Below are positions 47,260-48,756 of a DNA stretch of 64,000 bases, one piece after another (position 1 is the stretch's first letter; each line of letters begins with the position of its first letter). The notes beneath the pieces were generated by a model. That model made no database searches. It saw only the letters and a list, made by a program, of their open reading frames with translations, and was not told where the DNA came from. This stretch comes from Escherichia coli (GTDB lineage: Bacteria > Pseudomonadota > Gammaproteobacteria > Enterobacterales > Enterobacteriaceae). Made by a program: the position numbers and the translations under genes. The DNA lies in NCBI RefSeq assembly GCF_003334255.1, contig NZ_QOWU01000004.1, one strand, 5' to 3'.

Positions 47260-48756
47260 TTAATCCTCTCGGGCAAAAAGTGCCTCTATAAAGTCGTCCG
47301 CCTTAAACGGACGCAAATCCTCAATACGTTCGCCGACACCAATGTAGCGGATAGGGATACCAAACTGGTCAGCCACCGAGAAAATTACCCCGCCTTTCGC
47401 CGTGCCGTCCAGTTTCGTTAGCGTGATGCCGGTTAAGCCAACGGCTTCGTGGAACAGTTTGGCCTGGCTTACCGCATTCTGCCCGGTACTGGCATCAATA
47501 GTCAGCATAACTTCATGCGGCGCTTCAACGTCGAGTTTCTTCATCACGCGGACGATTTTCTTCAACTCTTCCATCAGGTGCGATTTGTTCTGCAGGCGTC
47601 CGGCGGTATCGGCAATCAGGACGTCGATATTACGCGCTTTAGCTGCCTGAATGGCGTCGAAGATAACAGAGGCGGAATCCGCACCGGTATGCTGGGCAAT
47701 CACCGGAATATTGTTGCGCTGACCCCAGACCTGAAGCTGTTCAACCGCTGCTGCACGGAAAGTATCGCCCGCCGCCAGCATCACCGATTTACCCTGCTGC
47801 TCAAACTGACGTGCCAGCTTACCAATCGTCGTAGTTTTACCCACACCGTTGACGCCCACCATCAGGATCACGAACGGCGTTTTACCTTCAACATTCAGCG
47901 GCTCATCGACTTTCGCCAGAATCTCGCCCATCTCTTCTTTCAGCAGGCCATAGAGCGCCTCGGCATCACGAAGCTGCTTGCGGGATGCGCCTTCCGTCAG
48001 ATTGGTGATAATTTTACGTGTGGTTTCCACGCCCACATCGGCGATCAACAGCTGTTCTTCCAGCTCCTCAAACAGATCATCGTCGATTTTTTTACCGCGG
48101 AACAGGCTGATAAATCCGGAACCGAGATTTTCTTTGGTTTTTAACAGGCTGCGTTTCAGGCGCGCGAAGAAACCTTCTTTGGTCGGTTTTTCTTGCTCCT
48201 GGGCAATTTCTTCCACCGGCTGCTCTTCTTCTGCCGGAGGAACTACCATCACCGCCTCTTCTGCCGCTTCGGCAGCCAGCGCCTGTGCTTCCAGCTCTTC
48301 GTCGGTGATTTCTTCTTTAGCCGCTTCTTCTTCTGCCGCTTCGACAATCTCTACGGTTTCCGCTTCAGCCTGCCACTCTTCTGGCGAAACCTCTTCGGCG
48401 TTGACGTCTTCTGGCAACGGCAGCTCTTCACGTTCGATAGCCACTGGCTCCGGCGTTTCTTCTGCGACCGGTTCCGGCTGTGCAACGACTTCCGCTTCAG
48501 GCTGCGCTTTTTCACTTTCAGCAACCTGTTCAGTGACTTCCACAACGTCGGCAGCAAAAGTTTCCGCCTCGGCTTCAGTATGCGCCTGCGGCTGCTCTTC
48601 AACGGCTTGTTCCGAAGCCTTCACAGGCTCTTGCGCCTGAACGATTTCTTCTACAACCGGTTGTTCATTCTGAACTTCTGTCTCTTTTTCCGGGGTCTGC
48701 TCTTTTTGACCAAAGCCCAGCCAGGAAAAAAAGCCACGTTTTTTTTCTTTCGCCAT
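47260..48756 (-). CDS. ftsY: signal recognition particle receptor
   Basis: 498-aa ORF with an acidic low-complexity N-terminal domain and C-terminal SRP GTPase domain. Confidence 0.95.
   Translation of the reverse strand: MAKEKKRGFFSWLGFGQKEQTPEKETEVQNEQPVVEEIVQAQEPVKASEQAVEEQPQAHTEAEAETFAADVVEVTEQVAESEKAQPEAEVVAQPEPVAEETPEPVAIEREELPLPEDVNAEEVSPEEWQAEAETVEIVEAAEEEAAKEEITDEELEAQALAAEAAEEAVMVVPPAEEEQPVEEIAQEQEKPTKEGFFARLKRSLLKTKENLGSGFISLFRGKKIDDDLFEELEEQLLIADVGVETTRKIITNLTEGASRKQLRDAEALYGLLKEEMGEILAKVDEPLNVEGKTPFVILMVGVNGVGKTTTIGKLARQFEQQGKSVMLAAGDTFRAAAVEQLQVWGQRNNIPVIAQHTGADSASVIFDAIQAAKARNIDVLIADTAGRLQNKSHLMEELKKIVRVMKKLDVEAPHEVMLTIDASTGQNAVSQAKLFHEAVGLTGITLTKLDGTAKGGVIFSVADQFGIPIRYIGVGERIEDLRPFKADDFIEALFARED

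Follow-up and report, generated by a model that had tools for sequence, protein, structure and literature searches.

The long antisense reading frames that lie opposite the 5′ part of ftsY in this stretch of Escherichia coli DNA are most probably a side-effect of the codons that encode the acidic A domain of FtsY. We put the probability of this reading, in which the antisense frames are not translated and selection acts on the ftsY frame only, at roughly 93%. The window analyzed here is the whole stretch of DNA, 64,000 nucleotides in length. An earlier note on it had interpreted the long frames as compositional by-products and not as genes, and null models, coding statistics, substitution patterns, conservation and start signals all agree with that interpretation.

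The window carries an ordinary E. coli ftsY gene. Each complete E. coli genome of the collection (5,426 in number) has a match to positions 47100..49000, and these 1901 nt are 100% identical at the DNA level to E. coli E2865, where ftsY, ftsE and rsmD are the only annotated features of the identical stretch. The window comes from a different strain and departs from E2865 upstream of approximately position 9064; the other genes were re-anchored by offset. The ftsY coding sequence (47260..48756, minus strand) was placed using the list of open reading frames (ORFs) and the RefSeq annotation of the identical stretch, and it encodes the SRP receptor FtsY, a protein of 498 aa. It is the first gene of the ftsY-ftsE-ftsX operon, with ftsE and ftsX downstream and rsmD divergent. 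The protein scores 386.2 bits against NCBIfam TIGR00064, which passes the curated equivalog cutoff of 260.7, and has full-length matches to PDB chains 5gad_l and 2yhs_A, both structures of E. coli FtsY. The SRP54_N helical-bundle domain occupies aa 211–276 (47929..48126, minus strand; Pfam PF02881, E = 4.1e-15) and the SRP54-type GTPase domain aa 294–494 (47275..47877, minus strand; Pfam PF00448, E = 1.2e-79). The features of the enterobacterial form of FtsY (acidic A domain, conserved extreme N terminus and A/N junction, ftsYEX context) were all found. Other E. coli genomes have alleles of 497 aa and 504 aa, the lengths differing through indels of multiples of 3 bp in the A domain. Compared with the known E. 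coli FtsY, the protein in the window has the same domains, operon order and acidic A domain, and nothing of substance differs. From this near-identity to the studied protein, FtsY would be expected to support the GTP-dependent docking of SRP-ribosome complexes at the membrane.

The coding part of the A domain (aa 1–196; 48169..48756, minus strand) has no Pfam domain and specifies a net charge of −47. The earlier note had called this region an acidic N-domain. The acidity was borne out, but the name was not: the region is the A domain, and SRP54_N begins only at aa 211. The description of a region rich in Glu, Ala, Gln and Val was correct, with 28.6% Glu, 15.8% Ala, 11.2% Val, 8.7% Gln and, in addition, 8.2% Pro over aa 1–196. 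At the DNA level, purines make up 64% of the sense strand and T accounts for 14.5%. The region had been characterized as built from GAA, GCA and GAG, which fits for GAA (42 codons) and GAG (14) but not for GCA, which occurs just 6 times and ranks behind GCG (12), CAG (12) and CCG (10). A 15-bp tandem repeat of 2.2 copies lies within the domain (48310..48342; Tandem Repeats Finder, score 52). Its sense strand reads GCGGCTGAAGAAGAA and codes for units resembling Ala-Ala-Glu-Glu-Glu.

The A domain of FtsY is known to be acidic and poorly conserved (PMC5533587, PMC2064314). Orthologues were drawn from 80 Enterobacterales ftsY loci, with one genome per species, and the stop counts given below use 79 of these. 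Across the set, the length of the A domain varies between 154 and 274 aa and its median identity to the window is 59%, whereas the NG part has a constant 302 aa and is 97% identical. Two stretches of the N-terminal region are conserved. The first comprises aa 1–16, MAKEKKRGFFSWLGFG (48709..48756, minus strand), and corresponds to the N-terminal lipid-binding motif (αA1). The second spans the A/N junction at aa 186–210 (48127..48201, minus strand), which contains Phe196 and the amphiphilic αN1 helix. In both, the residue found in the window is present in 96% of 78 orthologues, averaged per position. The conservation of these stretches fits the two lipid-binding motifs of FtsY described in PMC5533587, from which their roles are taken.

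Both of the alternative-frame ORFs of more than 200 codons that had been reported for this region are present at the coordinates given. The first, 47978..48640 (plus strand), has a TTG start and a product of 220 aa, and lies in a stop-free span of 228 codons (47954..48637). The third position of its codons coincides with the third position of the ftsY codons (hereafter the wobble-sharing frame), and its product is 30% Ser and 15% Ala. The second, 48193..48813 (plus strand), also begins with TTG, encodes 206 aa, and belongs to a stop-free span of 222 codons (48145..48810) that is antisense to ftsY codon for codon; its product is 23% Phe, 19% Leu and 14% Arg. In the same frame, and with just one stop in between, a third antisense ORF of 231 aa with a GTG start lies opposite the NG part (47449..48144, plus strand). 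An 83-aa, Lys/Arg-rich ORF lies on the ftsY strand in the +1-shifted frame (48351..48602, minus strand). We judge all four to be non-coding. The statement that other frames of the same DNA stay open for more than 200 codons needs narrowing, because both such frames are antisense (plus strand) and the same-strand alternative frames of ftsY are open for just 89 and 74 codons. The third antisense frame is open for only 99 codons in the window. The interval assigned to the phenomenon, 48150–48756, is likewise too tight for 47978..48640, which extends 172 nt past it into the N-domain coding part.

The openness of the two antisense frames can be accounted for by the codons on the opposite strand. 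Any antisense stop would require TTA, CTA or TCA on the ftsY sense strand. In the codon-for-codon frame, a stop would arise only where Leu or Ser is encoded by exactly TTA, CTA or TCA. The A domain has five Leu codons (four CTG and one TTG) and four Ser codons (two TCG, one TCC and one AGT), and because none of the three critical codons is used, this frame has zero stops across the domain. In the wobble-sharing frame, a stop would need either a Tyr codon preceded by a pyrimidine or a Gln or His codon preceded by T. Tyr is absent from the A domain and such a context arises for Gln just three times, which is why this frame has three stops over the domain. The residues concerned are scarce: the A domain consists of 2.6% Leu, 2.0% Ser and 0% Tyr, versus 10.7%, 5.4% and 3.2% in the products of the other genes in the window. 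The two stop-free antisense spans (222 and 228 codons) are thus most probably a passive outcome of codon use in the A domain.

Null models that preserve the host gene reproduce the spans. When codons were redrawn from the usage of the window with the FtsY protein kept constant, the longest span was 179 ± 63 codons in the codon-for-codon frame, compared with 222 observed (P = 0.24), and 264 ± 77 codons in the wobble-sharing frame, compared with 228 observed (P = 0.66). Synonymous permutation within each domain gave P = 0.91 for the codon-for-codon frame and P = 0.50 for the wobble-sharing frame. An antisense span of at least 200 codons covers the A domain in 69 of 79 Enterobacterales species. 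Over the A domains of the 79 orthologues, the wobble-sharing frame has 167 stops, against 174 ± 10 expected under permutation. For the codon-for-codon frame, permutation leaves the stop count fixed (97 by construction), and this frame was tested by the codon-redraw null in the window only. Once the null preserves the host protein together with its codon usage, nothing is left of the length signal.

Coding potential was scored as a codon-usage log-likelihood, in bits per codon, with the remaining genes of the window as the training set. Over the A domain, the ftsY frame scores 0.52 bits/codon, and real genes score 0.38 ± 0.15 (33 others). The two antisense frames score the same as the corresponding non-coding frames of other genes: 0.08 bits/codon for the codon-for-codon frame (mean of 0.08 in the 33 other genes) and −0.34 bits/codon for the wobble-sharing frame (mean of −0.29). 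The ORFs themselves are not gene-like, with −0.30 bits/codon for 47978..48640 and 0.06 bits/codon for 48193..48813; the same-strand ORF 48351..48602 scores −0.26 bits/codon. The antisense ORF opposite the NG part reaches 0.28–0.35 and was considered as a candidate gene. It was rejected, since in-register antisense frames of other genes reach 0.354 and dN/dS in its frame is 2.66. Codon-usage scores favor the ftsY frame only.

Substitution patterns were analyzed among seven Escherichia sequences. The ftsY frame has the lowest dN/dS of the frames, 0.16 in the A domain and 0.02 in the NG part. The codon-for-codon antisense frame gives 1.02 in the A domain (with the value of 2.66 in the NG part noted above), and the frame of the same-strand ORF 48351..48602 gives 1.3. 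The wobble-sharing frame yields 0.27 in the A domain, a value that could be read as selection on an antisense product. We rejected that reading, as the NG part, which serves as a control, gives 0.09 in the same frame; the low ratio is a geometric artefact that arises because third positions are shared with ftsY. Substitutions that are synonymous in ftsY and alter the wobble-sharing antisense product numbered 3 versus 4.9 expected in the A domain and 12 versus 13.4 expected in the NG part, both comparisons being low-power tests. With a dS of 0.37 in the A domain versus 0.29 in the NG part, ftsY shows no sign of extra synonymous constraint over the A domain. We conclude that protein-level selection acts on the ftsY frame alone.

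One alternative is that 48193..48813, the likeliest gene among the antisense ORFs, is a real, young and translated overlapping gene like those described in enterohemorrhagic E. coli (EHEC). Its location lends this idea some appeal, as rsmD lies on the same strand, 93 nt downstream of the end of the ORF, and translated embedded antisense ORFs have been published for E. coli. The codon-for-codon span is also open in all eight E. coli sequences sampled, at 221–237 codons. Such steady openness would fit a maintained ORF too, yet it is fully predicted by the codon content of ftsY, and neither the dN/dS of 1.02 nor the unreduced dS of ftsY in this region speaks for a second protein. Beyond E. coli, the frame is interrupted: the longest codon-for-codon span is 112 codons in E. 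whittamii and 117 codons in Escherichia sp. MOD1-EC7003. The wobble-sharing frame is similarly broken, with longest spans of 167 and 133 codons in these two species, and the 228-codon span is shortened to 138–144 codons in four of seven other E. coli genomes sampled. The antisense ORFs are not conserved intact in E. coli or Escherichia beyond what host codons predict.

Expression signals offer the overlapping-gene proposal no help. Neither 47978..48640 nor 48193..48813 has an ATG that would leave more than 77 codons, so that starts are limited to TTG and GTG, and no Shine-Dalgarno-like motif precedes any TTG or GTG candidate start of either ORF. The ftsY gene itself has AGGAG 11 nt upstream of its start. 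A crude consensus scan of 47200..49000 detected no promoter-like site on the plus strand, and an Rfam search returned nothing above threshold, its one sub-threshold hit being a snoRNA-like chance match. The products of 47978..48640, 48193..48813 and 47449..48144 have no family match in NCBIfam. Literature searches returned nothing relevant that links ftsY to overlapping genes, antisense genes or retapamulin profiling. The absence of ftsY, ftsE and rsmD from the 18 supplementary files of an E. coli overlapping-gene survey, whose text likewise does not name ftsY, is weak evidence, as those tables may use locus tags. Overall, we regard a translated gene at 48193..48813 as very improbable. The fuller version of this proposal, in which transcription and translation of the ORF yield a protein rich in Phe, Leu and Arg and a young overlapping gene has arisen from the low-complexity DNA of the A domain, is more improbable still. 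From their sequence, the antisense spans are probably untranslated.

Non-coding selection could in principle keep antisense frames open or deplete off-frame stops, for example by avoiding some mRNA sequence or structure. This possibility draws on the third antisense frame, which over the A domain of 79 species has 287 stops compared with 375 ± 12 after permutation, the corresponding ratio in the NG part being 1.01. The deficit, however, is limited to TT-A (0.65) and CT-A (0.55), where the hyphen marks the codon junction, and TC-A stands at 1.14; the ratio for all T-A junctions is 0.73. Stop depletion as selection for openness was rejected on these grounds: only stops at T-A junctions are depleted, which points to a codon-junction dinucleotide effect and not to stop avoidance. 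Moreover, the deficit is absent in Escherichia (in the window, 5 stops versus 5.3), this frame is open for a mere 99 codons in the window, and the two frames flagged at the outset have no stop deficit. The species compared are related, and the nominal significance of the third-frame deficit is consequently overstated. We consider selection of this kind, too, to be very unlikely, and the codons of the A domain remain the preferred explanation of the open frames.

The least credible alternative, that the long ORFs are pure coincidence and expected at such base composition, agrees with the data in nothing beyond the ORFs being non-coding and is contradicted by their number. In random sequence of the composition of the window, the probability of a stop is 0.042 per codon and that of a run of at least 220 codons is 8.5e-5, which gives an expectation of about 0.45 such runs per 64 kb over both strands. 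The window holds 11 alternative-frame spans of at least 200 codons, three in ftsY and eight in other genes. One of the latter, opposite glgP, extends over 404 codons; most genes carry none or one. The antisense spans therefore exceed chance when judged against random sequence, but not against codon-aware nulls. The long spans are caused not by chance but by the phased codons of a real gene, and the locus provides a worked example of why ORF length alone, measured against a random-sequence null, is no evidence of a gene.

The earlier note had warned that the alternative frames could be mistaken for genes. The hazard is real but rare. Among nine RefSeq E. coli loci examined, none had an alternative-frame gene annotated, and an exact look-up of four alternative-frame translations established that they are absent from a collection of 15 billion proteins. 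A similarity search of alternative-frame translations returned 4 and 6 clusters among 5.8 billion, so that about ten clusters resemble them. All four of the clusters that were inspected are calls antisense to ftsY, and three of them lie in indel-rich assemblies. Two of these come from E. coli assemblies (GCA_002230475.1 and GCA_002230715.1) that have 74–75 gaps over 4.5 kb relative to the window; another is from a contig with 91 gaps, in which neighboring genes are fragmented; and the last is from a 1,375-nt contig that cuts ftsY short. Mis-annotation is thus rare and goes with ftsY frames that are broken or truncated. The observation has little biological weight, but it is of some use to annotators: low-complexity coding DNA that is rich in purines and Glu codons reliably yields antisense ORFs of 200 codons, and gene callers occasionally report them where sequencing indels break the real frame or a contig end cuts it.

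Antisense overlapping genes with experimental support are available for comparison from EHEC, among them pop, opposite ompA (PMC7103648), ano (PMC5960689) and laoB (PMC5810103). Like them, the ftsY ORFs are a few hundred bases long and lie wholly or for the most part opposite an annotated E. coli gene. The EHEC genes, however, rest on RNA-seq and Ribo-seq signals, promoters and phenotypes, whereas the sequence-based tests applied to the antisense ORFs of ftsY were all negative or neutral. It has been argued more generally that long antisense ORFs in bacteria exceed the predictions of models and that some are expressed (PMC3454372; bioRxiv 10.1101/2020.11.18.388249). The closer parallel is with shadow ORFs (Mir et al. 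2012, PMC3454372), antisense frames that are far longer than in random sequence and are explained by host codons; according to citations in that paper, the origin of long antisense ORFs in the codon content of the sense gene goes back to Merino 1994 and Silke 1997. The phenomenon is already known and the present finding is ordinary. The ftsY spans resemble shadow ORFs in that the effect is most pronounced in the wobble-sharing frame and the codon-for-codon frame. They differ in that codon bias does not act alone: the low-complexity composition of the A domain, with few Leu and Ser residues and no Tyr, amplifies the effect.

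Stop-free frames of at least 200 codons are not confined to ftsY. Outside that gene, the 64-kb window holds eight further alternative-frame spans of this length, seven on the plus strand (1663..2790, 9200..10411, 24993..25898, 35508..36344, 40054..40740, 41076..41732 and 45398..46048) and one on the minus strand (61464..62255). Among them are antisense spans of 404, 302 and 279 codons opposite glgP, yhhX and ugpB, respectively. Long antisense frames are therefore frequent in the window and are not peculiar to ftsY. Gene calls antisense to ftsY were found in three E. coli-like assemblies, L090 (GCA_002230475.1), L091 (GCA_002230715.1) and L092 (Logan SRR23625872), which have 74–91 gaps relative to the window over 3.2–4.5 kb. 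Genes in these assemblies are broken up (rsmD, for example, appears as pieces of 83 and 64 amino acids). The gaps and broken genes look like uncorrected indel errors, which account for the spurious antisense calls.

The acidic A domain of FtsY has a codon context of its own. When the A-domain codons of 79 Enterobacterales ftsY genes (L003–L082) were compared with synonymous permutations, T-A and T-C junctions between codons were under-represented (0.73 and 0.69 of expectation), G-G stood at 0.84 and T-G was over-represented (1.12), although the magnitude of these departures is uncertain because the species are not independent. The NG domain of the same genes lacks this pattern, with T-A at 1.17. 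The junction pattern is a codon-context bias peculiar to the fast-evolving acidic region, of uncertain effect size.

The A domain (encoded by 48169..48756 in the window) also varies in length, from 154 to 274 amino acids across Enterobacterales, and the NG part is constant at 302. Within E. coli, in-frame indels alter A-domain length, giving FtsY alleles of 497, 498 and 504 amino acids (window, L002 and L083–L088). A 15-bp tandem repeat inside the A domain (48310..48342) hints that slippage may be one source of these changes. One ftsY of Enterobacterales type came from a record titled "Chryseobacterium sp. 18061" (L045, CACSKA010000004.1). Its product is 70% identical to the window protein over the full length, and the gene is similar to that of "Citrobacter sp. 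18056" (L055), from the same project; the L045 record is probably mislabelled or contaminated.

Downstream, the ATG of ftsE follows the ftsY stop codon by 2 nt (47255..47262). In the annotation, ftsE shares 8 nt with ftsX (46589..46596). Such dense packing of ftsY, ftsE and ftsX is consistent with translational coupling.

Sequence comparison with E. coli strain E2865 (L093, NZ_AP018808.1) gave 100% identity over the ftsY stretch and 99.1% over 9064..50000. Compared with window 1..9064, E2865 carries four additional genes between glpD and glgP, about 3.6 kb, that are absent from the window and encode three hypothetical proteins and one PstS-family protein. The window and E2865 are not the same strain over the full length.
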